DNA of 30,588 nt from Nitrospiraceae bacterium. GTDB taxonomy: Bacteria > Nitrospirota > Nitrospiria > Nitrospirales > Nitrospiraceae. Shown one piece after another: positions 4,590 to 26,358 of this stretch. A program made the position numbers and the translations under genes. The notes under the pieces are model-generated. The model saw nothing but the letters and a program-made list of their open reading frames with translations, did no database searches and was not told the DNA's origin. The DNA lies in assembly GCA_050246315.1 (NCBI GenBank), contig JBFWWG010000022.1, positions 1 through 30,588 of the forward strand, written 5' to 3'. Numbering within the stretch: the first letter of the stretch is position 1; each line of letters starts with the position of its first letter.

Positions 4590-5075
4590 ATGCTGAAGTT
4601 TTCGAAAAAGGCAGACTACGGACTGATGGCCCTACAGTACATGGCATCGCGGCAGAACCAGTATGGGGAGTTGTCAGTCCCCCGCATCGTCAACACAAAG
4701 GAGATCGCGGAAGAGTACAACATTCCATCCGAGTTGCTTGCCAAGGTCCTGCAGGCCCTGGCGAAGAACGGCCTGATCGAAAGTCATAATGGACCGAAGG
4801 GCGGATACCTGCTGGCACATCAGGCCAAGGCCATTACAATCGCCCAGGTATTGGAAGCGCTCGAGGGGCCGCTGGGCATCACCGACTGTTCTCATGAAAA
4901 TCATGACGGGATCCCCTGCTCGCAACAGGAGCATTGTACTATCCGGACACCGTTGCTCAAGCTCCAGGACAGCATCTATCAACTGTTGAACAACATGACC
5001 CTCCAGGACATGATGGGGGGGACGCCGCTCATTACCGTGCAATCTCTTACGACCGGCCAAGGAGTGACAAGATGA
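4590..5075 (+). CDS. iscR: Rrf2-family Fe-S cluster assembly regulator (IscR-like)
   Basis: [36 protein letters not shown], three C-terminal Cys; first gene of the isc operon; TGA overlaps the iscS ATG (ATGA). Confidence 0.88.
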
Positions 5076-6289
5076 AGTTGCCGATCTACCTCGATAACCA
5101 TGCGACCACCAAGGTCGATCCACGCGTCGTGGAAGCGATGCTGCCGTACTTTACGGAGAAATATGGCAATGCAGCCAGTCGCAACCACGCCTTCGGGTGG
5201 GCCGCCGAGGAAGGCGTCGAACAGGCGCGTCAGCAAATCGCCGAAGCGATCCATGCGGACGCCAAGGAAATCGTCTTCACCAGCGGAGCCACAGAATCGA
5301 ACAACCTCGCTCTCAAGGGCGTCGTCGAGATGTACCGAGAGAAGGGAGATCACATCATCGTCAGCTCGACAGAACACCGTTCGGTGTTGGACACCGCCAA
5401 GACACTGGAAACCAAACGGGGCGTGAAGGTCACGTACCTACCGGTCGATAAATACGGCATGGTGAGTCCGGATGATGTTCGATCTGCCTTGACGGACAAG
5501 ACAGTGCTCATTTCCGTTATGCTGGCCAACAACGAAATCGGCACGATCAATCCGGTAGCGGAGATCGGCAAGGTCGCCAAGGAAAAAGGGGTGCTCTTTC
5601 ACTGTGATGCGACCCAGGGCGTCGGGAAGATCCTCGTGGACGTCCAGACCATGGGCATCGATCTCTTGTCCTGTACTGCGCATAAGATTTACGGTCCCAA
5701 GGGCATCGGCGCGCTGTACGTTCGAAAGAAGGGGCCCCGCGTGCGTCTGGCACCGATCATCGACGGGGGCGGGCACGAACGAGGCATGCGGTCGGGAACC
5801 CTGGCAGTGCCGTTGATCGTCGGGTTCGGAGCCGCTGTGGCTCTCTGCCTGCAGGAGATGCCGGTGGAATCAGTTCGTCTGGCCGCGCTGCGGGACCGAC
5901 TTCAGAAAACCATCACGTCCGCCCTGGAGGAGGTCTATCTCAACGGACATTCCATCCAACGGCTGCCCCATAATTTGAATCTGTCCTTTGCTTACGTGGA
6001 GGGGGAGTCGCTGTTGATGGGGATGAAGGAGATCGCGCTCTCCTCTGGATCGGCCTGTACGTCGGCTACCCTGGAGCCCTCTTATGTGCTCAAGGCGCTG
6101 GGGGTGGGAGCGGAGCTGGCTCACTCCTCGATTCGGTTCGGTATCGGCCGGTTCAACAGCGAAGAGGAGATTGACTACACTGCCAAACGGATGATCGAGA
6201 CGGTCACGAAATTGCGCGAGATGTCCCCGCTGTACGAGATGGCGAAGGAGGGCATCGATTTGAAATCCGTCCAGTGGGCGGCGCACTAA
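5072..6289 (+). CDS. iscS: Cysteine desulfurase IscS
   Basis: [31 protein letters not shown] (PLP Lys), SSGSACTS (catalytic Cys), [20 protein letters not shown]-terminus. Start at ATG 5072. Confidence 0.97.
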
Positions 6290-6350
6290 CCTCCATACGG
6301 ATGCCGAGACGTTATAGAATTCTACAGGAAGACAGAGAGGAGGACCGACG

Positions 6351-6755
6351 ATGGCATACAGCGACAAAGTCGTTGATCATTTCAATAACCCTCGCAACAT
6401 GGGTTCGTTCAAGAAGGAGGAGGATGGCGTTGGGACCGGGATCGTCGGCGCCCCCGAGTGCGGCGACGTCATGAAGCTGCAGATCAAAGTGCAGAACGAC
6501 ACCATCGTGGACGCCAAGTTCAAGACGTTCGGCTGCGGATCGGCCATCGCCAGCTCCAGCCTGGCCACGGAATGGCTCAAAGGAAAAAGCGTCAATGAGG
6601 CCGCCCAGATCAAGAACACGGATATCGTGCAGGAGCTGAACCTGCCGCCCGTCAAGATCCACTGCTCCGTGCTGGCAGAAGACGCGATCAAGGCCGCGCT
6701 CAACGACTATAAGAAGAAGCAAGGGGGCTCTGCCCCGGACGGCAAGGAAGGGTAA
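6351..6755 (+). CDS. iscU: Fe-S cluster scaffold IscU
   Basis: MAYSDKVVDHFNNPRN, GAPECGDVM, FGCGSAIAS, LPPVKIHCS (HscA-binding motif); SD GAGGAGG. Confidence 0.97.
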   Translation: MAYSDKVVDHFNNPRNMGSFKKEEDGVGTGIVGAPECGDVMKLQIKVQNDTIVDAKFKTFGCGSAIASSSLATEWLKGKSVNEAAQIKNTDIVQELNLPPVKIHCSVLAEDAIKAALNDYKKKQGGSAPDGKEG

Positions 6756-6774
6756 CCACTGAGAGGTAACAGCG

Positions 6775-7122
6775 ATGGACAGCCAGGCTACCACACCGGT
6801 CATCACACTCACCGAGTCCGCGGTCAAGGAAGTCAAGCGCCTGCTCGACCTGCAGGGCATCACCGAAGGCGGGTTGCGCTTGGGGGTGAAAGGCGGGGGC
6901 TGCTCGGGGTTGAGTTATACCCTCAACTTCGACGAGAAGATCGGTCCGCATGATCAGGTGTATGACATCGAGGGGATCAAGGTGATTGTGGACGTCAAGA
7001 GCGCCATCTATCTCCAAGGGACCCAGCTTGATTATTACAAGGATCTCATGACCGGGTCGTTTCGGTTCATCAATCCGAACGCATCGAAAACCTGCGGCTG
7101 CGGCGAATCCTTTTCCGCTTAG
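6775..7122 (+). CDS. iscA: A-type Fe-S carrier IscA
   Basis: GVKGGGCSG..Y, NPNASKTCGCGESFS; position within the isc operon. Confidence 0.95.
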   Translation: MDSQATTPVITLTESAVKEVKRLLDLQGITEGGLRLGVKGGGCSGLSYTLNFDEKIGPHDQVYDIEGIKVIVDVKSAIYLQGTQLDYYKDLMTGSFRFINPNASKTCGCGESFSA

Positions 7123-7182
7123 GCCGGACAGGACACATCTCGCGAGTCTGCGACGATGTCGCGACTCCTAAGGCTGGAACCC

Positions 7183-7911
7183 ATGGAAGAGACCGTCAAC
7201 ATGCCTCCTCGGCGCACCGAGCTCCACATGGCTCGGAGTATGTGTTGGCACTGTCAATCCCAAGTCACGGGAGAGTATTTTTGCGACCGCTGCGTCAAGG
7301 TCCAGCCGCTGTCCAAGGAGAGCGACTACTTTTCCTGCTTGGGGCTCCCGCGGCGTCTGATGATCGACGCACAGGACCTGGAACGCCGGTTTTACGACAT
7401 GAGTCGCGCGTTCCATCCGGATTTCTTCCACACCAAAACGGACACGGAACGGACGATCAGCCTCGGCAATTCGGCCCTGTTGAACAATGCTTACCGTACG
7501 TTGAAAGATCCGATTCAACGGGCTGAATATCTGGTCGGCCTGGAGGCCGGATCCGTCAAGAACATCCGATCGGCCCCGCCGGCCGAACTGTTTGAAGAAA
7601 TCCTCTCTTTGCAAGAGGATCTCGAAAACTACCGGCAAGGCTTGGCAGAGGGATCCTCCGACAAGCTGGCTGGCTTGCGCGCCAAGCTCGACTCGGACCG
7701 CCGAGGCCTGGAAGAACGCCAGCAAGAGCTGGAGTCGAGCCTCTTCGGGCTGTTCAGAAAATGGGATGCGCTCCACCAACAAGAGGAGGGAGGCGCCGCA
7801 ATGCGCGTTGAAAAGGATGCTGTGCTCAAGGAGATGCGCGAGGTTCTGTCCAATCGCACTTATGTCTGCAACATTGTCACCGACGTGGCCAACACCCTGG
7901 AATCCAATTAG
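7183..7911 (+). CDS. hscB: Fe-S co-chaperone HscB with N-terminal tetracysteine domain
   Basis: J-domain HPD (FHPDFF), LNNAYRTLKDPIQRAEYL; N-terminal CWHC-x9-FCDRC. Start uncertain (7156, 7183, 7201 or 7228). Confidence 0.92.
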   Translation: MEETVNMPPRRTELHMARSMCWHCQSQVTGEYFCDRCVKVQPLSKESDYFSCLGLPRRLMIDAQDLERRFYDMSRAFHPDFFHTKTDTERTISLGNSALLNNAYRTLKDPIQRAEYLVGLEAGSVKNIRSAPPAELFEEILSLQEDLENYRQGLAEGSSDKLAGLRAKLDSDRRGLEERQQELESSLFGLFRKWDALHQQEEGGAAMRVEKDAVLKEMREVLSNRTYVCNIVTDVANTLESN

Positions 7912-7949
7912 GGACCGGCCGACCTGTACATCTCTTAGGCTAGGACATT

Positions 7950-9770
7950 ATGGCACCCATCGTCGGCATAGATCTCGGCACCACCAATTCACTGATCGCC
8001 TACATGGACGGCTCGACGCCCCGCGTGCTCGCGGACCGTCATGACCGCACCATGGTGCCGTCGATCGTCGCACTCACCGACAATGGATTGATTGTCGGCG
8101 ATGCGGCCAAGGAATTTCTCGTACGAAGCCCGGACCGCACGGTCTATTCCGTGAAGCGCTTCATGGGCAAGAGCTTGCAGGACGTGTCCGATGAACTGAC
8201 CTATTTCCCTCATCATCTTGAGGAAAAGAGCGGGGTCATCCGCATTCGGATCGGCGAGAAGACCTACTCCCCACCGCAAATTTCCGCCATGGTGCTGAAG
8301 GAGCTGAAACAACGGGCGGAGGCGTTTTTTGGAGAGGACGTGAGACAAGCCGTCATCACGGTCCCTGCCTATTTCAACGACAGCCAGCGCCAGGCGACCA
8401 AAGACGCCGGGACAATTGCGGGCCTCGAAGTTCTGCGGATCATCAATGAACCGACGGCTGCGTCGCTGGCTTACGGATTACAGGAGCGGACCCAGGGCAC
8501 GATCGCGGTTTACGATCTCGGCGGCGGCACGTTCGATCTGTCGATTCTCAAGTTGAAGGACGGCATTTTCGAGGTGTTGTCCACCAACGGCGACACGCAC
8601 CTTGGCGGCGATGATTTCGACCGGCGTCTGGCGGACGTGATGGTGAAGGAGATTCGCGAGCAGCAGGGACTGGACTTGAGCCAGTTTCCCGATGCAATGC
8701 AGGAGGTTCGGCTCGAAGCCGAACGGGTGAAGATCCGGCTATCGGATGACCACAAGGCCGCGGCGACCGTGGAGTTGCCGGATTCCAAAGACCGATACCA
8801 GCGGGAGTTCACCCGCGATCAATTCCACGCCTTGACCGCGGATCTCGTCGAGCGCACCTTGAAACCCTGTCGCCTGGCCTTGAAAGATGCGGGGCTCAAT
8901 CCATCCGAGATCGACGAGGTCGTGCTGGTCGGCGGCGCAACCCGCATGCCGGTCGTGCGGCAACGCGTCCAGGAACTGTTCGGCAAACGCCCGCATTGCG
9001 AATTGAATCCCGACGAAGTCGTCGCGCTGGGGGCCGCCGTCCAGGCCGGCATCCTGAGCGGTGTCACCCAGAATCTTCTGTTGTTGGACGTCACACCCCT
9101 CTCGCTTGGGATCGAGACCATGGGCGGCGTCATGAGCCCATTGATCCGGCGCAACACGACGATCCCGACCAGTGCGAAAGAAATGTACACCACGTATGTG
9201 GACGGACAAACCTCCGTGGATCTGCACATTCTGCAGGGTGAGCGTGAACTCGTCAAAGACAACCGGAGCTTGGGGCGCTTTCAACTCAAGGTTCCGCCGT
9301 TGCCGGCTGGCATCCCTCGTATCGAAGTCACGTTCCTCATCGACGCCAATGGCATTCTCAACGTGTCGGCCAAGGACGTGCGCACCGGTGAAACCCAATC
9401 GATCCAGGTCAAGCCCTCTTACGGCCTCTCGGACGATGAGGTCGAGCGCATGATCAACGAATCCTATACCTTTGCAGCCGAAGACCTGAAAGCGCGTCAG
9501 GTCATTGAGGCCAGAACGGAAGCCGATGCCATTCTCGCGGCAACCGAGAAGGCCCTCCACATGGGTGCCCAGCTGATTGAGGCCCGTGAGATCGAGCAGA
9601 TCCGCCAGGCGCTGGTCACTCTTCGCACCGCAAAGCAGGGAGACGACCATCGGGCGATTCGGGCCCAGATCGGCGAAGTGGAAAAGGTGACTCACCACCT
9701 GGCCGAAGTGTTGATGGACAATTCGCTCAAGGAAGCGCTGCAACACAAGAAGCTCTCCCAAGTCACGTAG
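7950..9770 (+). CDS. hscA: Fe-S chaperone HscA (Hsp70 family)
   Basis: [46 protein letters not shown]; follows hscB. Confidence 0.94.
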
Positions 9771-15475: not shown

Positions 15476-15611
15476 CTGCCTCAGGACGGCACGCTCTGCC
15501 TGAAGCCTGTCCACCCGGTAGGTCTTTTGCCCCGTTGACATAGATTTTCGAAGAGTGGTACCAAATTCACTTGGGTGCACCGGGTGGGTCTTCAACCAGA
15601 AGGAGGATTCG

Positions 15612-16082
15612 ATGGGTGATGTGGCAGCAGAAATAAAAGTGGGAGATACGGCTCCGGATTTCACGCTCAAGGATCAGGATCAAAAGGATGTGAAGCTCAG
15701 CGACTATCGGGGGAAGAAGAATGTCGTGTTGGCGTTCTATCCCCTTGACTGGAGCCCGGTCTGCACGAACGAAAACAAGTGCCTGACCGATGATTTCCCG
15801 AAATTTACCTCGGCCAACGCCGAGCTGTTCGGGATCAGCACGGACAGCTTCTTTTCCCACAAGGCTTGGGCCGACCACTTGGAGCTCAAGCACCGGCTCC
15901 TGGCTGATTTCAACCGTGAGGTGGTCAAGAAGTATGGCCTGTATTTCGAGCCGCTGAACTGCGGCAAGCGCGCCACGGTCATCGTGGACAAGAACGGGAA
16001 GGTCGCGTATGTGAAGGTTCAGGAGATCAAGACCGCCCGAGAGGACAAGGAGATTCTTGACGCGCTGGCGAAGCTGAACTAA
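15612..16082 (+). CDS. Peroxiredoxin (AhpC/TSA, AhpE/BCP-like)
   Basis: [24 protein letters not shown] (peroxidatic Cys), [24 protein letters not shown] at 15601; TTGACA at 15535. Confidence 0.93.
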
Positions 16083-16093
16083 CAACCAGCCCA

Positions 16094-16156
16094 GAGTGCT
16101 GGGTGCTGAGGGTCGAGCTTTTGGCTGCCTCAGCACTCAGAACTCGGCACTCAGTA
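16094..16156. repeat. Inverted array of heptamer repeats (CTCAGCA-type)
   Basis: GAGTGCTGGGTGCTGAG (16094-16110) is the inverse of CTCAGCA-CTCAGAA-CTCGGCA-CTCAGTA (16129-16156). Confidence 0.75.
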
Positions 16157-16161
16157 CCACC

Positions 16162-16494
16162 ATGTCAGGCACCGTCGAAGACGTCAGCGATCAGAATTAT
16201 GCGCAGTTCACCGGCGCACCGGCCGCCCTAGTAGCCTATGGGTTGGCAACCTGCGAACCCTGCAATCAATACGATCCGATCTTGGAGGAAGCCGCAGCAA
16301 AGTTTCCTCAGGTGAAAGTCGGCAAGGCCAAGATGCACATTCCAGGCCGATGCCGAGAAATCAAAAAAATGCACAGCTTCGAGACCTATCCCACGACCCA
16401 CTTTTTTGCCAACGGAAAACTCTTGCTGACGCGTGAGGGCATGGTCGAAGCCGCCGAACTCTCCGCGCTCATTGCCGATCACCTCTTGAAATAG
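16162..16494 (+). CDS. Thioredoxin-fold protein (CEPC)
   Basis: CEPC active site, YPT cis-Pro motif, F.NGK; 110 aa, downstream of the peroxiredoxin. Confidence 0.85.
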   Translation: MSGTVEDVSDQNYAQFTGAPAALVAYGLATCEPCNQYDPILEEAAAKFPQVKVGKAKMHIPGRCREIKKMHSFETYPTTHFFANGKLLLTREGMVEAAELSALIADHLLK

Positions 16495-16660
16495 TGTCTC
16501 GGCGGAATTCCTCCTTCCCTCTCGCGAGGAGGAGCCCGCGCAGCGACCAGTTTCGCGAGAGAATCCCTGCGCGAGCCGTCCCGGCCTCCACCCACCTCAC
16601 CTTAGCGGATCATCGTGGCATGACCGCTTGCCGCCGAGCGACGGAGACCCTCTCCCGTCC

Positions 16661-17146
16661 TCATTTCACCAGAAACACTGACCCAGCCCGGCTAGTCCTG
16701 TGCAGCGGGCAAAACACCGCGATCGTTTCTGAATAGGATGCACGAGCCTTAAATGAGCTGTTGCTGAGCCGGACCCGATACACCTGTCCCGGCTCCACCG
16801 TTACCGAGATTGGCGCGGTGTATTGGAGTACCGTCTCGGTCGGCACCATCGAGTCGACCGGTCGGATGATCTGCTCACGTATCACAGCCTGGAGTTGTGG
16901 CATCGCAAATCCATGCGAGACATCTGTCGGATTCTCCAACACCAGCACGATCTCCTCTTGAGGAACCGCCGAGAGATCAATCGTCCCTGAAGCCGCCTCC
17001 CAGATGGGCTGATCCGCCGAAGGAATCCGCGCCACAAATCGATATTCCGCGCCAGCAGCGGGATTGAACGTCCCTGTGAGGCCCAGGAACAACCCGAGCA
17101 CCACGCTCAACGCACAGCATCGCTCGATGGTCTTCGCCGTCATCAT
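16661..17146 (-). CDS. Secreted cupredoxin-like protein, paralog 1 (diverged)
   Basis: Signal peptide; LENPTDVSHGFAMP, VTVEPGQ, FCPLH..RAGS. Collinear with the paralogs at 17343 and 19456. SD GAGGA before ATG 17146. Confidence 0.75.
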   Translation of the reverse strand: MMTAKTIERCCALSVVLGLFLGLTGTFNPAAGAEYRFVARIPSADQPIWEAASGTIDLSAVPQEEIVLVLENPTDVSHGFAMPQLQAVIREQIIRPVDSMVPTETVLQYTAPISVTVEPGQVYRVRLSNSSFKARASYSETIAVFCPLHRTSRAGSVFLVK

Positions 17147-17230
17147 CAAGAGTTCCTCTTCACTTTGATGGAACAAATGATTCGACGGTTGCGCCGTGAT
17201 CTCCGCGATCGCTTCGCAGGACCTTCGTCA

Positions 17231-17246
17231 CGCAACCGCCGAACCA
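17231..17246 (-). promoter_or_regulatory. sigma54 (-24/-12) promoter for paralog 1
   Basis: Minus strand TGGTTCGGCGGTTGCG (GG-N10-GC with TTGC), about 85 bp upstream of the ATG. Confidence 0.55.
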
Positions 17247-17342
17247 TGCTCACGCACGCTCATCAATCATCGAGCGTTCGCATCGCCCGCCGATCCCTCC
17301 AGGACTAAACGGAGGCGGCAGGGCCGACACCGCGCGAGACGC

Positions 17343-17813
17343 CTACATGACGAACATCGATCCGGCTTGATGCACATCCTTATGGATCGTGCAGAAGAAC
17401 CGGAAGGCCACGCCCGTGGATTTCGGAGCGAACAGTTCGGTCGTGTGAACCTGTAACCGCTTGCTCTCTCCCGGCTTGACAGACACCGTCATCGGCTCCA
17501 CGTACGGAATCCTCATCGGCTCGGCGATATCGCTTCCGCTTTCAGGCATCAGCACCTGCTCCCGAATAATCCTCTGGACTCCCGGCATCACGAAGACGTG
17601 CTCCGTATCGGTCGGATTCTCCAGCACAAACGTCAGACCTTCCGCGCTGTCGGCCGGCCGCTCCAACAACATGCTCTCCGTATGCCACACCGATCGATTC
17701 CCTTCAAAATCTCTCGCGACGAAATGAATTTCCTTCCCCCAAGACGGAGCGTTGAAGCTCAGCAGGAGCAGGCCAGTCAGAGCGGCGAACGAGATGCGAG
17801 TCACATGAGTCAT
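17343..17813 (-). CDS. Secreted cupredoxin-like (nitrosocyanin-like) protein, paralog 2
   Basis: Signal peptide ending PSWG-KE; LENPTDTEHVFVMP, VSVKPGE, FFCTIHKDVHQAGSM. SD AAGGAGGT before ATG 17813. Confidence 0.85.
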   Translation of the reverse strand: MTHVTRISFAALTGLLLLSFNAPSWGKEIHFVARDFEGNRSVWHTESMLLERPADSAEGLTFVLENPTDTEHVFVMPGVQRIIREQVLMPESGSDIAEPMRIPYVEPMTVSVKPGESKRLQVHTTELFAPKSTGVAFRFFCTIHKDVHQAGSMFVM

Positions 17814-17896
17814 AGCAGCAACCTCCTTCGATACAGTGAGTACGCGCCAACGGCGCGAGGTGATGATCGATCGAATCGCGGACAGCACAAGGAATG

Positions 17897-17912
17897 AGCA
17901 AGAGCGATGCCA
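17897..17912 (-). promoter_or_regulatory. sigma54 (-24/-12) promoter for paralog 2
   Basis: Minus strand TGGCATCGCTCTTGCT, near-consensus TGGCAC-N5-TTGCW. Confidence 0.85.
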
Positions 17913-18027
17913 TCCCGCCCTGCCGCATCCTTCGATGCATCTCAAGACGGAACCCACGCTGTGCCAACGTTTCTCTGCGCCGGATGTTTCAATCGGTCGG
18001 TAGAGAAGGTAAACGATGCCGATCGTC

Positions 18028-18063
18028 CCGTGGGATAGCACGGTGAACCACGAAGGATCACGG
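18028..18063. promoter_or_regulatory. Tandem enhancer-like sites (UAS): CCGT-N8-ACGG and CCAC-N8-ACGG
   Basis: CCGTGGGATAGCACGG-TGAA-CCACGAAGGATCACGG; the same architecture recurs at 20123-20158. Confidence 0.7.
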
Positions 18064-18171
18064 TTGCTCGTCGGAATCTCCTCAGCAGTGATGCCTCGCG
18101 TCCCTGGTCGGAGCCGCGCCGACACAGCAGCGACGGAATGGTTACACGGAAGGCGCCGCCTGTCGCCGGTG

Positions 18172-18187
18172 TGGCACCACGTTTGCT
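18172..18187 (+). promoter_or_regulatory. sigma54 (-24/-12) promoter, divergent from paralog 2
   Basis: TGGCACCACGTTTGCT, full match to TGGCAC-N5-TTGCT. Confidence 0.75.
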
Positions 18188-18383
18188 AAAACCTCTTGAG
18201 CGCTGTTGTCCGGATCTCATGGAATGTCCGCCAGAGCCGCAACTGCATCTGGAGGCGCCGGTCCGACGGATGGACCAGGGTGACAACCCGAATTTCAGGG
18301 GTCTACCCGCTTCCAATTCAATCAATGCTGGATAAGCTCCTCGCCCAGAATATTCGTGATCGCTTCTCCGACAACCATAAGGG

Positions 18384-19463
18384 TTGGGTTCAGGGGTGGC
18401 TCGGGCAACGGACGAACCACGCGGACCGGACAACAGCATGCTCGGAGACATCGTGCCCGACGCCGTTACGGTTTTGAATCGGTGGAACGACTTATCAAGC
18501 ACACAGGCCAGGTACACCATGGGTGCAATGGGTCACAGCCTTGATATCAGCTCCAGTGCCAATCAGACGACCCCACTGAAGGTGAATACCTCCTCGGTGA
18601 CTAAGGGAGGGCTCGATGGGTTAGGCTTCTATTGTCGCGCTCCGTCGCAACATCGACTGCAGTGCTTCATCAGGCGGATGTGGGAGAGGACCCAGGGCGT
18701 CGCCTATCACCAGAATCAGTGCCCCAACGTCAACAAATCAGGGCGGATCGGCCCGCGAGGCTATGCCTTCGAGTATGCCTGCTTGGGCAGGACCTCTCCA
18801 ACCGTCTCCGAGGACCGAAGTGGAGTGAACGGCAACCACGGGCGAAACAGCGCGCACCTGGCTTTGGTGGATCTTCGCGACAGGTTCAACCTACCGACAG
18901 ACGTCTCCGAACGGCCAGCCCCCCTCGCCCAGAGTGCGACATTCCGATTCGGCGGTAGGGACGATGACTCCGACAATACGAGGAAGCGCCGTCTTGGCAG
19001 CCTCCTCCGGGTCGAACCTGCATCCCGTTACGATCTTGTGCTCCCGGACAATCTCCGCAGGTTTAACGGCAGGAGGTTCGACAGACGACACGGTAGGGGC
19101 TTCACCAACGTAACCTTCCTACGACCCTATGCCATCCTCTCTCGTCTCGAGCAGATTTCCAGGCCAAATGTGTCTGAATCTCTCCACGGGCGTCGATCGC
19201 CCATTGGCCCGAACTCGCAGCCTTGGGGCGCCCCGGGCCCTTCTGCATCCGGCCCTCTTCTTTGGCCGGACAGCCGCCGGGAAGCCGACCAAACCATCGA
19301 CCGGGTATTCCATGTTCTGGTCGATTATGTTCGTGGCCCGATCGGCCTGTTCTCCAACCTCGGCTTGTTCCCTTTTGGTTGTCTCCATGCACCCCGTCAA
19401 GACTCTTCGCTGAAGTATGAAGTCGGCGTGGCATCTCGATTCCGGCGACGATGGATCACATGA
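18384..19463 (+). other. Long orphan open frame (359 codons); real gene or eroded pseudogene
   Basis: Stop-free 1080 bp frame with no recognisable gene on the opposite strand, downstream of a sigma54 promoter; no recognisable domain; first ATG at 18438. Confidence 0.35.
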
Positions 19464-19920
19464 TGTACAGGGAACCGGCCAGATGAATGTCTTTGTGGAT
19501 CTCGCAATAGTAGCGAGCGGCCTGACCCGCCGCCTTGTCGGCCAAGAGACTAATGCCGTCAACTCTTACTCTCCTGCGTTCTCCCGGCTTAACGGCCACC
19601 GTCATCGACTGGGCATAGACCAACCTGATAGGCTCGGCAAGATCGCTGCCGCTCTCAGGCCAGAGCACATGTTCGCGAGTGACGAATTGCACCCCCGGCA
19701 TCGCAAAGGTATGCTCGACGCTCGTTGGATTGGTCAGGATAAAAATGAGGTCTTCCTCCTTGTCGAACGCACGCTCCAACAGCACCGTGTCAGTTCGCCA
19801 GATAGGCTGATTTTCTTGAGACTCAGCCGCGACGAAATGCACCTCCTTACTCCAAGACGGCTCGGCGGCAACTATCGCGAACAGCGCCAGAAGAATGGTT
19901 CGAGACAGGAACATAGACAT
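19456..19920 (-). CDS. Secreted cupredoxin-like (nitrosocyanin-like) protein, paralog 3
   Basis: Signal peptide ending PSWS-KE; LTNPTSVEHTFAMP, VAVKPGE, YYCEIHKDIHLAGSL. SD AAGGAGGT before ATG 19920. Confidence 0.85.
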   Translation of the reverse strand: MSMFLSRTILLALFAIVAAEPSWSKEVHFVAAESQENQPIWRTDTVLLERAFDKEEDLIFILTNPTSVEHTFAMPGVQFVTREHVLWPESGSDLAEPIRLVYAQSMTVAVKPGERRRVRVDGISLLADKAAGQAARYYCEIHKDIHLAGSLYIM

Positions 19921-19991
19921 GAGTCGCACCTCCTTCGATGATAGGGGCGAGAGCCTGACCGTACGATCGCTCTCGATTGACCAGCGTCATG

Positions 19992-20007
19992 AGCAAGGGC
20001 GATGCCA
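19992..20007 (-). promoter_or_regulatory. sigma54 (-24/-12) promoter for paralog 3
   Basis: Minus strand TGGCATCGCCCTTGCT(CAT); 18/19 identical to the paralog 2 promoter. Confidence 0.85.
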
Positions 20008-20122
20008 ATCAATCGAACCTGTGCCGCGATCGGCCGAAGACAAGAAACACCTGGAGTTAGAAGGAGTTTAGGCCGATCGCTCGACACCTCCAAAACAGGG
20101 GATCGATCGCGATGAATTCGAA

Positions 20123-20158
20123 CCGTGAACGACAACGGTGGGCCACGAAGACAGACGG
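20123..20158. promoter_or_regulatory. Tandem enhancer-like sites (UAS): CCGT-N8-ACGG and CCAC-N8-ACGG
   Basis: CCGTGAACGACAACGG-TGGG-CCACGAAGACAGACGG; 116 bp from the -24 element, the same offset as at 18028. Confidence 0.7.
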
Positions 20159-20324
20159 GATGCGGTGCAACTGCCTGTGTGAAGATGCCTCGATCACGAA
20201 GATGGTAGCGGCCCGGACATCGCTCCTACCGGAGCGCGGCAAGGTGGGAAACGGCTTCTAGGGACTGTATGATAAACGGAAGTGGCGCGTCCGAGGTGCC
20301 GACAGATGATCAGAGGACGGTGAC

Positions 20325-21866
20325 ATGACTAAGAACGAATTGAATTACGAAATCCTGCTTGAGGTCACCAACGTCCTGAACCTGCAGCGCGATTGGGAAG
20401 GGCTCTGGAAGGCCGTGACCAAACAGATCCAGCGGGTCGTTCCCTGGGATCGAGCGGGCATTCTGCTCTACGACCCCCAACAGGACGGATTCCGATTTTA
20501 CGCCGTCGTGACCAATGCGCCACCGGCATTGAGCGCCGACACCATCGTGCCGCGCCGGGGAAGCGCCATGGGTTGGGTGTACGATCACAAGGAGGTCCAC
20601 GTGCGCCCCAACCTGCATCAACAGCAGGTTTTCCTGGAAGACAAGTATTACCTGGAGGAAGGGCTCGGACGCATGATCAATTTCCCGCTCCTCGTCCAGG
20701 ATGAATGTCTGGGCACTCTAAACATCGGAAGTCGCCAGACCGGGGATCCGGACCCGGACGATGTCAAGTTTCTCCAACTGGTCGCCACCCACATCGCCAC
20801 GGCAATTGCTCAGGTGCGCGCGTACGAAGAGATCAAGCGCCTGAGCGAGCAGCTTAAGCGGCAAAATGAATACCTGGCGGAAGAGGTCAAGCTCAGCCGC
20901 AATTTTGGAACCATGGTGGGCCAATCCCCGGCATTCCGCCATGTGCTCGATCTCATTCGAGCGGTCGCCCCAACCTCCACGACCGTCCTGTTATTGGGCG
21001 AAACCGGGACCGGCAAAGAACTCTTGGCTAGGGCCGTTCACGACGGAAGCCCCCGCCATCACAAACCGTTCATCCGCGTGAACTGCGCCGCCCTGCCCGG
21101 AGGGTTGGTCGAGAGCGAGTTGTTCGGACATGAGCGAGGCGCCTTCACCGGCGCCAGTTCCCAGCGACCGGGACGCTTCGAACTTGCCAACAGTGGTACG
21201 CTGTTCCTCGACGAAATCGGGGAGATGCCGCTAGAGGCCCAGGCCAAACTCCTCCGCGTCCTGCAAGACGGGATGGTCGATCGCATAGGGAGCACCGCGC
21301 CCGTCCCCGTCGATGTCCGCATCGTGGCGGCGACCAACGCCCATCTTCAGGACGCGATCAAGAAGGGAACGTTTCGCTCGGACCTCTTCTACCGTCTACA
21401 CGTCTTTCCCGTCTCAATACCTCCGCTCCGCGAACGGCGGGAGGACATCCCGCTTCTCGCGGACCATTTCCTCGCGCAAGCGGCCATCAAACTGAAGCGG
21501 CGTCACCTGAAGCTGGGCCGTCAGTCGCTGGAACGGCTACAGGAGTATGCTTGGCCGGGCAACATCCGAGAACTGCAGAGCCTGATCGATCGGGCGGTCA
21601 TCCTTTCGACCGGCGATACGGTCGAGATTGACGAGGCCTTCTTCCCCAAAGCGTCTTACACGCCGGAGCCGACGGTATCGGAAGCGATGCCGACAACCCT
21701 CCATCAGCTTGAGCATGAGCACATTATCGCCGTCTTGAACAGGACCGGCTGGCGGATCTACGGTCCGCAAGGCGCTGCCGCCCAATTGGGGCTCAATCCG
21801 GAGACGCTGCGGAGCAAGATTCGTAAATTGGGTCTCAAGAAGCCCTCGCCGACCCTGTCCACCTGA
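20325..21866 (+). CDS. sigma54-dependent activator (GAF-AAA+-HTH; FhlA/NifA-like bEBP)
   Basis: N-terminal GAF; GETGTGKE (Walker A), ESELFGHERGAFTGA, LFLDEIGE, RSDLFYRL, WPGNIREL; Fis-type HTH GAAAQLGLNPETLRSKIRKLG. Confidence 0.95.
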   Translation: MTKNELNYEILLEVTNVLNLQRDWEGLWKAVTKQIQRVVPWDRAGILLYDPQQDGFRFYAVVTNAPPALSADTIVPRRGSAMGWVYDHKEVHVRPNLHQQQVFLEDKYYLEEGLGRMINFPLLVQDECLGTLNIGSRQTGDPDPDDVKFLQLVATHIATAIAQVRAYEEIKRLSEQLKRQNEYLAEEVKLSRNFGTMVGQSPAFRHVLDLIRAVAPTSTTVLLLGETGTGKELLARAVHDGSPRHHKPFIRVNCAALPGGLVESELFGHERGAFTGASSQRPGRFELANSGTLFLDEIGEMPLEAQAKLLRVLQDGMVDRIGSTAPVPVDVRIVAATNAHLQDAIKKGTFRSDLFYRLHVFPVSIPPLRERREDIPLLADHFLAQAAIKLKRRHLKLGRQSLERLQEYAWPGNIRELQSLIDRAVILSTGDTVEIDEAFFPKASYTPEPTVSEAMPTTLHQLEHEHIIAVLNRTGWRIYGPQGAAAQLGLNPETLRSKIRKLGLKKPSPTLST

Positions 21867-22917: not shown

Positions 22918-23238
22918 TTAGGCGCTGAAGGAACTGCCGCAACCGCAGGTCGTCTTCGCCTGCGGATTCTTGATCGAAAACCCGGACCCCTGAAGGCTAT
23001 CCACATAATCCACCTCCGCTCCGTTCAGAAGCGGGGCGCTTTGCGGATCCATAATGACCTTGATGCCGCCCTTTTCGATGATCGTATCGTCCTCTCCGAT
23101 CTTGGACTCGAAGGCCATGCCGTACTGATAACCGTGACAGCCTCCGCCTCGGACGTAGATGCGCAGACCCTCCACATCCGGCTCTTCCTTCATGAGTTCC
23201 CGAATCTTACTCTCCGCGGTATCGGTGATGGTGACCAT
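22918..23238 (-). CDS. erpA: A-type Fe-S insertion protein (ErpA/HesB family)
   Basis: LRIYVRGGGCHGYQYG, LQGSGFSIKNPQAKTTCGCGSSFS; SD AAGGAGG; own TTGACT/TATACT-like promoter at about 23285-23315. Confidence 0.9.
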   Translation of the reverse strand: MVTITDTAESKIRELMKEEPDVEGLRIYVRGGGCHGYQYGMAFESKIGEDDTIIEKGGIKVIMDPQSAPLLNGAEVDYVDSLQGSGFSIKNPQAKTTCGCGSSFSA

Positions 23239-23375
23239 TGCGCGCTCCTCCTTTGATCCATGAAAAGGACCGGACCGTTGGGTTAGTATATAATGCTGGC
23301 TTAGCCCTCAGTCAACGTCACGGCCGTAATTTACCTCTTCCTCTGAGAAGGCGCCCCAACCCGTCAGATTCAGGA

Positions 23376-23963
23376 TCACTCACCGGTCAAATCCGTCAAC
23401 CACTCTTGCTGCATCTCCCGAGGCACCACTGCCTCAGCCCGATAGTTCGAATGGTCAACCCGAAGGGACACAAGTGGCGTCCCCTGCTGCAAGATCTTGA
23501 TAAATCGAGGACTTGGACGAAATCGCACGAAATGCACCGCGCTGATTTTGTCCTCTTTGCTATGTCCGCCTTCGAACGTGCCCTCAACGCCCTCCGTGTC
23601 CGCAACCAACCAGACCGTTCGGCCTCGATCGATGCCTTGAAACGCATCGAGGTCCCGCTTCACGTCGGCCGATTCGGTCACCTCGATAAAGAGCGTAGCG
23701 CTTAACTCACCAGGACCGGGCAACAGGGCATTGTACACATCCAGTTCCTCTTGAACCTTCACAGGATCGACGATCCGTTCTGCCCGGATCATCTCCTGCA
23801 CCTGAAATTGCAGGGTGTCGCGATTTTCAAAGAGGAGCGTCACTTTGTCGCCGACCGACAGTCGGCGGCGGGCCTTCAGCGCGATGAGACGCCGGCGAAA
23901 TGCTTCCCGTTGGCGCTCGTATTCCTCATAGGGGATCAGATGTTCCTTGCTCAGCGCCTTCAT
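23376..23963 (-). CDS. DUF3501 family protein
   Basis: LLFENRDTLQFQVQEMIRAERI, ELDVYNALLP, LSATLFIE, KISAVHFVRF; adjacent to rubrerythrin and the Fe-S oxidoreductase. Confidence 0.9.
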   Translation of the reverse strand: MKALSKEHLIPYEEYERQREAFRRRLIALKARRRLSVGDKVTLLFENRDTLQFQVQEMIRAERIVDPVKVQEELDVYNALLPGPGELSATLFIEVTESADVKRDLDAFQGIDRGRTVWLVADTEGVEGTFEGGHSKEDKISAVHFVRFRPSPRFIKILQQGTPLVSLRVDHSNYRAEAVVPREMQQEWLTDLTGE

Positions 23964-25237
23964 GAGGGCAATCCATAGGCGTTACGGACAATCTGAATCG
24001 GATGGAGTGTCCGTTTCCCGGCGAACGCGGTCGAGTCGCCGCCGGCCTGGTCCAACTGTAACCCGGCGAGCGGGCAATCAGATGCGACCAGATCGGCGGG
24101 TACCTGATCGATCTCGCGGACCGCCTTCTTGGCAATCTTCATGGAGAGATCGAAGAACTCCGTCTTGGCCGCCCAAGTGCCGTCGTGCCCGGAACAACGT
24201 TCGATGACCTCCACCTGCGCCCCCGCCGTTTCCATCAACTCCTTCGATTTGAAACCGATGTTCTGGTCTCGCAGGTGGCAAGGAATTTGGTAGGCCACCC
24301 TGCCCGGCTTTCGTACAAAATCCGTCGCAAGCCGGCCGGCGCGCTTGGCGCGCATGAGATACTCGCAGACATCGAATGTGCGTTCGGCAACCGCGTCAGC
24401 CTCCCCGCCGGGGAACAGATAGGGATATTCCCGTTTCAGCATCAAACTGCAGCTCGGCACGGGGACCACCACGTCATAGCCTTGCTCGACGTATGGACGG
24501 AGCGATTGTAAATTCGCACGCGCAGCCTGGCGGATCGCGTCGATATCGCCGATGTCGAACGCGGGCATGCCGCAGCAGCGCTGTTCCGGGAACGCCACTT
24601 CATAGCCGTTCTTCTCCAGCACTTGCACGGTCGCTCGTCCCACATCGGTGGCCTGGTAATTCACTAGACAACTGGCAAAGAGGGCAACTTTCCCGTTGGC
24701 CATGTCCGGCCGATTGGCGGGAGCCCTCCGTTCCCACCACCGAGCGAACGTTTCCCGCTGGAACGGCAGGAGTCGTCGCTCTCGATGAATCCCCAGCATC
24801 TGATCGAAAAGGACTCGAAACCACGGAATCCGGAGCGTCCAATTGACCATCCCCGCGAACCGGCTACTGATTGACCCGATGAAATCCGTCTTCACGAGGA
24901 GACGATCCCTCCAGGAGGCTCCCTGCTCTTGAGCTTTCTGCTGCTTCCAGACGATCATCAACCGCGGGAAATCGATCTCATACTGGTGCGGCGGCGTGTA
25001 GGGACAGTGGTTGTAACAGAGCTTGCAGTAGTAACACTCATCCACTACCCGATGGTAATCGTCGGGGTGAAGCTTGGTCAGATCGCCTTCCTGCGCGTCG
25101 ATCCGATCGAAGAGCGTATTAAACGACGGGCATAGGTTGAAACAACGCCGGCACCCGTCGCAGACCTCGAAGATGCGATCTGTTTCACGTTTGACATCGG
25201 CTGGGGAGGCCGGCGTCAGCAGGCTCAAGCCCTTCAT
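23960..25237 (-). CDS. Rubrerythrin-associated Fe-S oxidoreductase (GlpC/HdrD-like, CCG domains)
   Basis: [12 protein letters not shown] and [12 protein letters not shown] ferredoxin motifs; QRCCGMP, PSCS, CHLR, RCSG, SDCP. Confidence 0.9.
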
Positions 25238-25360
25238 CGTCGAAACTCACCACAAGAGGGCCCGGGGTCTTCAGCGTCGCCCCAGGCCCGGTACGGTTAT
25301 GATTGTTGTCTTAACCAAAATTGTCCGCCGGCGGCGAATGCCGCTGCGGCCCTTCGTCAC

Positions 25361-25789
25361 TCAACCCTTGTTCAATCCTTCCAATCCCTTGGTGAACCGG
25401 TTCGCATGCGAACGCTCGGCCTTGGCCAACGTTTCAAACCATTCGGCCAGTTCGGCAAAGCCTTCGTCCCGCGCGGTCTTGGCCATGCCCGGATACATCT
25501 GCGTGTATTCGTAGGTTTCGCCCTCGATCGCCGCCTTCAAGTTGGCTTCGGTGTTCCCGATTGGAACGCCGGTCGCCGGATCCCCGACCTCTTTGAGAAA
25601 ATCCAAATGGCCGAACGCATGACCGGTCTCCGCCTCCGACGTATCCCGGAAGAGGCCACCCACGTCCGGGTACCCTTCGATGTCCGCCCGGCGGGCGAAG
25701 TACAGGTACCGGCGATTGGCCTGGGATTCGCCGGCAAACGCGTGCTTGAGATTTTCATGGCTCTTGGTCCCATTCAAACTCTTTCCCAT
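25361..25789 (-). CDS. rbr: Rubrerythrin (short, no rubredoxin domain)
   Basis: [41 protein letters not shown] di-iron ligands; SD AAGGAGGT. Confidence 0.95.
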
Positions 25790-25896
25790 CTCGAACCTCC
25801 TTCTGTGTGAATCGTCACCAGTGCTCCTCTCATCACGGATCGGCTACACGCCGAGAGCCCTTGTCCATCCGACGACCAACGTTGTGGTCTGGATGA

Positions 25897-26358
25897 TTAT
25901 GTCCGGCCTTTGCGGCCTCGCCGCCCACGACGACAGCTCTCGCAGACCCCATGAAATTCCACCCGATGCCGGCGGACCTCAAACCCTTTCGCAACGGCGG
26001 ATGACAGCGAGAGGTGGTCCAACCGTTCGTCCATCACATCCTCAATCCGCCGACAGTCGACGCAAATGAGGTGGTGATGGGGAGCGAGGTTCCCGTCGAA
26101 TCGCGCTCCATCGTGTCCAAGATTGACCTCTTGCACCAGCCCCGCCCGCCTCAGCGCGCTCAGGGTGTAATAGACGGTATTCTGTGAAATATTCGGACAG
26201 GTCCGTCTCACGGACATATAGAGCGCCTCCGCCGTCGGATGGCTTGTCGTCGTCACCAACGCGCGGTAAATGGCGGCTCGCTGAGGGGTCAGTCGCAATC
26301 CGCACTCGCGAAACCGACGACGAACCTGCTTCTCTATTGGTACGGCCTTCGTCGCCAT
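25897..26358 (-). CDS. perR: Fur-family regulator, PerR-like
   Basis: GLRLTPQR, HPTAE, TVY.TL, RFDGNLAPHHHLICVDCRRIEDV (Asp ligands as in PerR), CESC. Confidence 0.85.
   Translation of the reverse strand: MATKAVPIEKQVRRRFRECGLRLTPQRAAIYRALVTTTSHPTAEALYMSVRRTCPNISQNTVYYTLSALRRAGLVQEVNLGHDGARFDGNLAPHHHLICVDCRRIEDVMDERLDHLSLSSAVAKGFEVRRHRVEFHGVCESCRRGRRGRKGRT

Follow-up and report, generated by a model that had tools for sequence, protein, structure and literature searches.

A cluster of exported-protein genes and a divergent sigma54 activator gene lie at positions 16661..21866 of a 30,588-nt stretch of DNA (the window) from a Nitrospiraceae bacterium (assembly GCA_050246315.1, contig JBFWWG010000022.1; genome G000 below). 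The initial annotation read this region as a self-contained sigma54 regulon: three secreted cupredoxin paralogues, each with its own promoter, and an activator with GAF, AAA+ and helix-turn-helix (HTH) domains. The analysis described here finds a cupredoxin family missing from the catalogues, whose copper site is predicted to be unusual, together with an unstudied subfamily of sigma54 activators. The genes are these:

16661..17146, minus strand: P1, exported cupredoxin-fold protein (by model), 161 amino acids (aa); open reading frame (ORF) with ribosome-binding site; ratio of nonsynonymous to synonymous substitution (dN/dS) 0.12 versus G001
17343..17813, minus strand: P2, exported cupredoxin-fold protein (by model), 156 aa; ORF with ribosome-binding site; dN/dS 0.08 versus G001
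19456..19920, minus strand: P3, exported paralogue of P2, 154 aa; ORF with ribosome-binding site; fold assigned from identity; dN/dS 0.20 versus G001
20325..21866, plus strand: GAF-AAA+(GAFTGA)-HTH sigma54 activator, 513 aa; recognition helix LGLNPETLRS; dN/dS 0.04 versus G001

G001, G002 and G003 are comparison genomes of the same genus; contigs of G000 carry C numbers, and other fetched loci L numbers. All four genes are intact and under purifying selection relative to G001, and the gene order of the module is kept in all three same-genus genomes (split over two contigs in G003). A ribosome-binding site precedes each of the three exported-protein genes, and each product begins with a hydrophobic stretch, which a heuristic reads as a Sec signal peptide. 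The activator contains GAF, Sigma54_activat, lid and HTH_8 domains plus the GAFTGA motif. With these ORFs, ribosome-binding sites and domains, the three paralogues and the activator are found where the initial annotation had placed them. The genome also encodes rpoN.

A cupredoxin family and its predicted copper site

P2 and P3 are 51% identical, and P1 shares 30-34% with either. Four further paralogues, without sigma54 sites of the kind described below, are on contigs C1 and C25, making seven per genome in all. Pfam and NCBIfam scans returned no match for P1, P2 or P3, as the initial annotation had expected. The best Pfam match in the family, of PF13473 type, has E 0.12 and occurs in one of 58 alignment rows (a set that includes close orthologues and two rows with aberrant tails); the homologues that carry a name, from Ca. 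Nitrospira bockiana and a Nitrospiraceae bacterium, are annotated as 'hypothetical'. A literature search, in a library without most subscription papers, found neither the family nor the module described. In the main text of an order-wide genome comparison (PMC12342949), copper, cupredoxin, sigma and porin go unmentioned.

AlphaFold2 models of the mature proteins (predicted local distance difference test score 88 for P1, 89 for P2) show a beta-sandwich with a long inserted hairpin. All 50 matches listed by VIA for the P2 model carry cupredoxin domains (top Z 10.1). In single-domain structure comparison, P2 aligns with FtrB (Z 9.6, root-mean-square deviation (rmsd) 2.2, 87 aligned), the Cupredoxin_1 protein 4hcf (Z 9.4, rmsd 2.3, 88 aligned), and nitrosocyanin (Z 9.3, rmsd 2.5, 93 aligned). 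P1 has the same three leaders (top Z 9.5; nitrosocyanin Z 8.6, rmsd 2.8, 91 aligned). Foldseek agrees with a cupredoxin fold (laccase domains), as does the ESM Atlas, where the top cluster is automatically named 'putative EfeO-type cupredoxin-like'. By these models and structure searches P1 and P2 adopt the proposed cupredoxin fold, a Greek-key beta-sandwich; P3, at 51% identity to P2, presumably does too.

The candidate ligands are His72, Cys141, His144, and His148 in P2, and His70, Cys139, His142, and His146 in P3; the position of the axial Met is occupied by Gln149 and Leu147, respectively. P1 offers His78, Cys146, and His149 only: it has no further loop His and no axial Met, and Arg stands at the axial position. 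In the P1 and P2 models the ligand loop sits between the last two strands. All 58 rows keep the upstream His and the Cys, and at least 90% keep the first loop His. An additional His three residues before the closing Gly is present in 36 rows, including P2 and P3. The axial Met of plastocyanin aligns two residues before that Gly, one after the extra His; no row has Met there, and the position varies across the family (Q, L, I, V, A, P). Met occurs at C+6 in three rows and an acidic loop in ten; P1-type rows have neither the extra His nor the acidic loop.

Copper binding by P1, P2 and P3 is thus a prediction from sequence, and one that can be held with high confidence. For P2 and P3, a His3Cys site of red or type-2-like character, with an exchangeable position, is predicted at about even odds.

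Nitrosocyanin (NcyA of Nitrosomonas europaea, PDB 1iby, TIGR03096) is likewise a single exported cupredoxin domain in a nitrifier. It forms a homotrimer and has a red type-2 spectrum; a trimer prediction for P2 with zinc scored 0.00, which is neither support nor counter-evidence. Its copper ligands are Glu60, Cys95, His98, and His103 plus water, and NO (nitric oxide) oxidation has been proposed as its function (PMC13746201); it has been termed the sole natural red cupredoxin found (as of 2024; PMC10804444). As in P2 and P3, C-x2-H is followed by a second loop His in place of Met (PMC13746201, PMC10804444). The differences are several: the upstream ligand is Glu there and an invariant His in the family described here; the loop reads C-x2-H-x3-H in P2 and P3, whereas nitrosocyanin and some paralogues have x4; P1 and P2 carry a long extra beta-hairpin, share 16-17% identity with nitrosocyanin, and lack a match to its hidden Markov model (HMM); and the family is multi-copy and sigma54-linked. 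By ligand and by HMM, P1-P3 are not nitrosocyanins. P2 and P3 look like hybrids, joining the upstream His of type-1 sites to a nitrosocyanin-like second loop His. This predicted ligand arrangement is absent from all papers searched. It has a precedent, because imidazole bound to engineered type-1 sites gives nitrosocyanin-like spectra (PMC6115626).

The type-1 blue copper proteins (plastocyanin, amicyanin, stellacyanin) share the fold and the His...Cys-x2-His core, which is the most conserved part of the family. The family differs from them in that no row has an axial Met, most rows have the extra loop His, and neither Copper-bind nor Cupredoxin_1 matches above cut-off. P1-P3 might be ordinary one-electron shuttles, their type-1 sites having axial Gln (P2), Leu (P3), or nothing (P1), with different potentials and a structural extra His. 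Gln and Leu are among the natural replacements of axial Met (PMC4059628), and a sequence search of the PDB, which gave nothing significant, included a weak profile match to the plastocyanin loop (E 0.39). Several features make plain shuttles improbable, however: the extra His is retained in most rows while the axial residue varies; the long extra beta-hairpin is unlike small shuttles; and the module contains no oxidoreductase gene.

Promoters, upstream element and activator

The GG-N10-GC pattern is present at all three places given by the initial annotation, but it is uninformative alone because it occurs 14.5 times per kilobase (kb) across the genome. A strict pattern, TGGCAY-N5-TTGCW, finds 17 sites in the 4.39 megabases searched. 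Three of these are here (17912 minus, 20007 minus, 18172 plus; expected, 0.02 per 5.2 kb), and each has its counterpart in G001, G002, and G003. The initial annotation overlooked the plus-strand site at 18172, a 36-base-pair (bp) element shared by the promoters, and a porin relic. The further features are as follows:

17897..17912, minus strand: predicted sigma54 -24/-12 site for P2, likely also for P1; predicted start near 17886
18172..18187, plus strand: perfect sigma54 site directed at the porin relic, with a predicted start near 18198
19992..20007, minus strand: predicted sigma54 -24/-12 site for P3; predicted start near 19981
18028..18063, no strand: upstream element A, 36 bp, palindrome 18028-18043; candidate activator site, flanked by the divergent promoters of P2 and the porin
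20123..20158, no strand: upstream element B, 36 bp, palindrome 20123-20138; second and only other copy in the genome
17177..17247, minus strand: conserved hairpin in the spacer between P2 and P1; 5' arm at 17230-17247, which holds the P1 site, and 3' arm at 17177-17194
18204..19445, plus strand: decayed gene for an alginate-export-type outer-membrane porin; 5' part and an internal part deleted, frameshifts

The core of the element, CCGT-N8-ACGG, ends upstream of each strong site, at a distance of 115 bp for P2 and P3 and of 128 bp for the plus-strand site. Its two genome copies score 48-55 with a self-trained profile (next best, 9.5). The element is kept in G001-G003 and in metagenome locus L051 (58% protein identity), and partly in L052. 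The exact palindrome lies ahead of four of 28 sigma54-like sites in the genome, namely the three strong sites here and one of the other 25 (on C15), and in 0.3% of 5000 random windows. Scanning 401 genomes across the phylum with the 36-bp element returned G000 twice and three single one-mismatch matches; control scans returned two.

Comparison with related activators ties the element to activator type, and does so better than adjacency can. The sample comprised 14 other-genus loci, picked mainly by best score (split locus L092 was excluded from the tree). All nine loci whose activator has an NPETLRS helix carry a pair of boxes, neither with more than one mismatch, roughly 70-115 bp ahead of a sigma54-like site, which fits the strict pattern in six loci and a relaxed one in three. 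At four loci with other helices the picture differs: L079 has one imperfect box, L078 has no box, and L083 and L084 have no strict site. This agreement of box and helix is a concordance rather than a blind test, because the palindrome was derived from the same loci in which it was later counted, in kin genomes, and to that extent it counts against the reading. From the sequence comparisons, it is nonetheless very probable that the activator binds the CCGT-N8-ACGG element. The initial proposal that the adjacent activator controls P2 and P3 is backed by the shared upstream element and by the box beside nine of nine same-helix activators.

NorR, NifA, and FhlA share the GAF-AAA+-HTH layout, the GAFTGA motif, and palindromic sites roughly 70-130 bp upstream of -24 sites; the Nitrospiraceae activator subfamily differs in having its own candidate box. 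Relatives of the activator GAF region (E <=1e-30) are present in 120 of 300 family genomes. A search of the PDB with this region returned generic GAF domains only. His92, Glu105, Asp106, and Cys128 of the GAF domain are invariant and thus candidate ligand contacts. Two observations concern further control. On C15 (position 84050, minus strand; locus L093), an exact CCGT-N8-ACGG box stands 138 bp upstream of a strict sigma54 site. Two ORFs follow, one small and Cys-rich, the other exported-looking and 189 aa long, and the site may be an extra activator target. Ahead of the activator itself, a second conserved block at 20243-20277, with TATGAT, is kept in four genomes and is a candidate housekeeping promoter.

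The claim that each exported protein has a sigma54 promoter holds for P2 and P3, with their strict sites and shared element, and fares poorly for P1. The P1 site, TGGTTCGGCGGTTGCG (17231-17246), has GG and TTGC in register, but it carries three mismatches (such sites occur 1.1 times per kb) and no element upstream. It also makes up the 5' side of a hairpin whose stem is 18 bp long. Folding of the spacer gives z -4.45 for the mRNA strand, against -3.05 for the opposite one; four of the 18 stem pairs vary among three genomes, each exchanging G-U for Watson-Crick pairing or the reverse (no compensatory change), and all four variable positions keep pairing on the mRNA strand only. Because the P1 site is weak, lacks an upstream element, and is part of a hairpin conserved on the mRNA strand, P1 and P2 probably share one transcript with a structured spacer, and P1 is unlikely to have a promoter of its own.

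The alternative gives P1 a weak sigma54 promoter driven from element A or by another activator, with the hairpin as 5' leader or regulator. The 5' arm, including the 16-mer, is unvarying in four genomes, as a protein-binding site would be, and this invariance leaves such a promoter some chance, against the co-transcription favoured here. The strand-specific pairing and the defects of the site itself speak for a shared transcript, as does the spacer between P2-like and P1-like genes at L051, which has hairpins and no sigma54-like site; a separate P1 promoter is thus doubtful. The hairpin was also considered as a REP-like (repetitive extragenic palindromic) repeat and rejected: its exact arms occur only here.

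RNA data came from eight of 20 listed runs, all of them contigs that may include DNA; their depth therefore gives no ranking of the genes. One contig (run X3, 16400-17844) covers P1, the spacer, and P2, and contigs of X6, X7, and X5 cross the P1 site, a weak hint only. Equally weak is the hint from contig ends at 17830-17874 in four runs, to be set against the predicted start at 17886. Contig starts at 18195-18220, in six runs of four studies, fall near the predicted 18198, a place that is also a deletion junction. Contigs of X2, X7, X8, and X19 run across these places. The RNA contigs cover the region but show neither starts nor levels.

A decayed porin gene and a recurrent module with exchanged parts

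A decayed porin gene occupies the 1.6 kb between P2 and P3. Its counterpart behind the plus-strand promoter of G001 and G003 is intact and encodes a 590-aa protein with a signal peptide, a PF13372 domain, and a C-terminal YRF; the G001 orthologue scores 31.1 bits against PF13372 (cut-off, 25.2), and the window copy has no Pfam match. G000 and G002 carry relics with 5' and internal deletions, the rest frameshifted. Their dN/dS is 1.06, versus 0.15 for the intact pair. A decayed porin behind an intact promoter speaks of module trimming in one lineage. Two other accounts of the gap were dropped: a 359-aa ORF (18384-19463) as a live gene, at dN/dS 1.06; and a large non-coding RNA, for which Rfam gave one chance match in a gap that aligns to the 590-aa porin gene.

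Porin orthologues occur in ten of 301 genomes; two from other genera are near an NMT1-type ATP-binding cassette transporter (by Pfam for L090, by gene-end similarity for L091). In other genera, the orthologous activator accompanies a helical exported protein and, at most loci, a different PF13372 porin. Loci L073-L077, L080-L082, and L085 show this arrangement: a sigma54 site with tandem boxes, a helical exported protein of 165-185 aa, a PF13372 porin, and the activator. The helical protein has no Pfam match and is homologous to proteins of about 145 aa in cupredoxin clusters of PAS-LuxR type on C1. Because other-genus activators adjoin another exported protein and porin, a set of activator, small exported protein, and porin recurs with its parts exchanged.

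The activator-cupredoxin pairing is not conserved across Nitrospirota: it was found in this genus only, and promoter and element in two short metagenome contigs as well. The description of the regulon as self-contained holds roughly, qualified by the porin gene within the module, the C15 site with its exact box, and the four paralogues elsewhere.

The family itself is widespread. Its profile matches 102 of 401 genomes of the class and 91 of 227 Nitrospiraceae genomes, weak matches counted, and many members are in PAS-LuxR clusters together with other exported proteins. Two such PAS-LuxR-linked clusters (L034:7853-13363 and L035:5152-9646) are in the same genome as the window. Between them they contain three additional members of the family, proteins of another cupredoxin-like family that have the motif WCDIHPEV at the C-terminus, and an activator with two GAF domains and another helix. 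At L041, L044, and L067, a family member stands directly behind a porin-like gene of 500-540 aa; operon partners there are a twin-arginine translocation (TAT) metallophosphoesterase and a SoxA/TsdA-like cytochrome c. By sequence, most of the family in Nitrospiraceae is without sigma54 control.

Elsewhere in the window are ordinary genes of redox stress: 22918-26358 and 4934-9770 encode a Fur-family regulator, rubrerythrin, a CCG iron-sulfur (Fe-S) protein, DUF3501 and HesB-like proteins, and an isc-type Fe-S operon; peroxiredoxin- and thioredoxin-like genes lie at 15555-16494.

Nitrogen oxides or copper

The reading we prefer, at a probability of roughly 0.5, is that the GAF activator drives three promoters and that the exported, predicted copper-binding cupredoxins most likely perform periplasmic NO or nitrite redox chemistry. 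Binding of a small effector to the GAF domain would come first; dimers of the activator, seated on elements A and B, would then open sigma54 complexes at the three promoters, element A serving both divergent ones (P2 and porin). The apo-proteins would be exported and loaded with copper in the periplasm, and the hairpin may tune the level of P1 against that of P2. That a nitrogen oxide is inducer or substrate, with the porin as its entry route, is a tentative extension. P1 as a three-ligand, high-potential electron partner of P2 is a further and less probable one.

Nitrogen-oxide chemistry is narrowly favoured over copper trafficking and plain electron transfer because of the nitrosocyanin-like loop, the nitrite-oxidising host, and the position of a subfamily activator and of sigma54 regulators beside nxrAB. 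At L078 (1276-13990), a subfamily activator lies between nxrAB and a gene for a 1723-aa multicopper oxidase, with a sigma54-like site before the oxidase; the oxidase has two close homologues in G000 (73% and 65%), where nxrB ends at two contig edges. In N. moscoviensis, too, nxrAB has sigma54 regulators as neighbours (PMC6606698).

The strongest rival keeps the same regulation and makes the proteins periplasmic carriers and buffers of copper or another metal, acting together with the porin in uptake and supplying the many copper enzymes of the cell. Metal-handling cupredoxins of the EfeO/FtrB/CupA type (PF13473) are the joint best structural match, and the best single-domain neighbours include FtrB, EfeO, CupA, and a Cu-bound Cupredoxin_1 protein. 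Seven paralogues per genome with diverse ligand loops would suit such a role, as would a co-regulated porin, the family members behind porin-like genes at L041, L044, and L067, and the large multicopper oxidases of the genome. The family differs from EfeO/FtrB/CupA proteins in keeping a full His-Cys-His site, and the module has neither an EfeU/FtrC permease gene nor one for a peroxidase. Against metal carriage, the 30 ORFs scanned in the window include no copper exporter, TonB receptor, or Cu regulator, and P1 has no Met or His cluster outside the site. Nor are we aware of any sigma54 activator of GAF type that senses copper. Metal carriage is a serious but still improbable alternative.

Several observations weigh against nitrogen-oxide chemistry or against the regulon as drawn. 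FtrB and the Bacillus Cupredoxin_1 protein tie with nitrosocyanin in Z; TIGR03096 does not match P1-P3 at E 0.01, and a genome search with it found only an unrelated sub-cut-off stretch on C13. The extra His is missing from 22 of the 58 rows, and Gln149 could be the fourth ligand of P2, as in stellacyanin. The activator is below the NCBIfam cut-offs for NorR, NifA, and FhlA (375/476, 413/529, and 391/830), and the nxr-side activator of L078 has a different helix and no box. None of six other-genus porin orthologues has a family member or subfamily activator in its fetched flanks; moreover, the cupredoxins do not need the porin, because it is dead here and they are kept. At 20 other-genus family loci, a strict sigma54 site precedes the family gene in none; with many family members in PAS-LuxR clusters, the sigma54-controlled version is a lineage-specific re-wiring.

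The boldest form of the nitrogen-oxide reading, is a long shot. It would make P2 and P3 the first 'red' cupredoxins of His3Cys type known from nature, a class of their own next to nitrosocyanin. With the three-ligand P1 as electron partner they would form an inducible periplasmic NO- or nitrite-converting system of nitrite oxidisers, under a Nitrospiraceae-wide GAF activator subfamily that binds the CCGT-N8-ACGG box.

The family offers small, soluble, easily expressed test cases for the tuning of copper sites, with natural variation in the fourth ligand (His, Asp, Arg, or none), and for NO or copper handling in nitrite oxidisers. Regulation in Nitrospira is barely mapped, and the candidate box would open a way into an activator subfamily that is large and unstudied and has the regulator beside nxrAB among its members.

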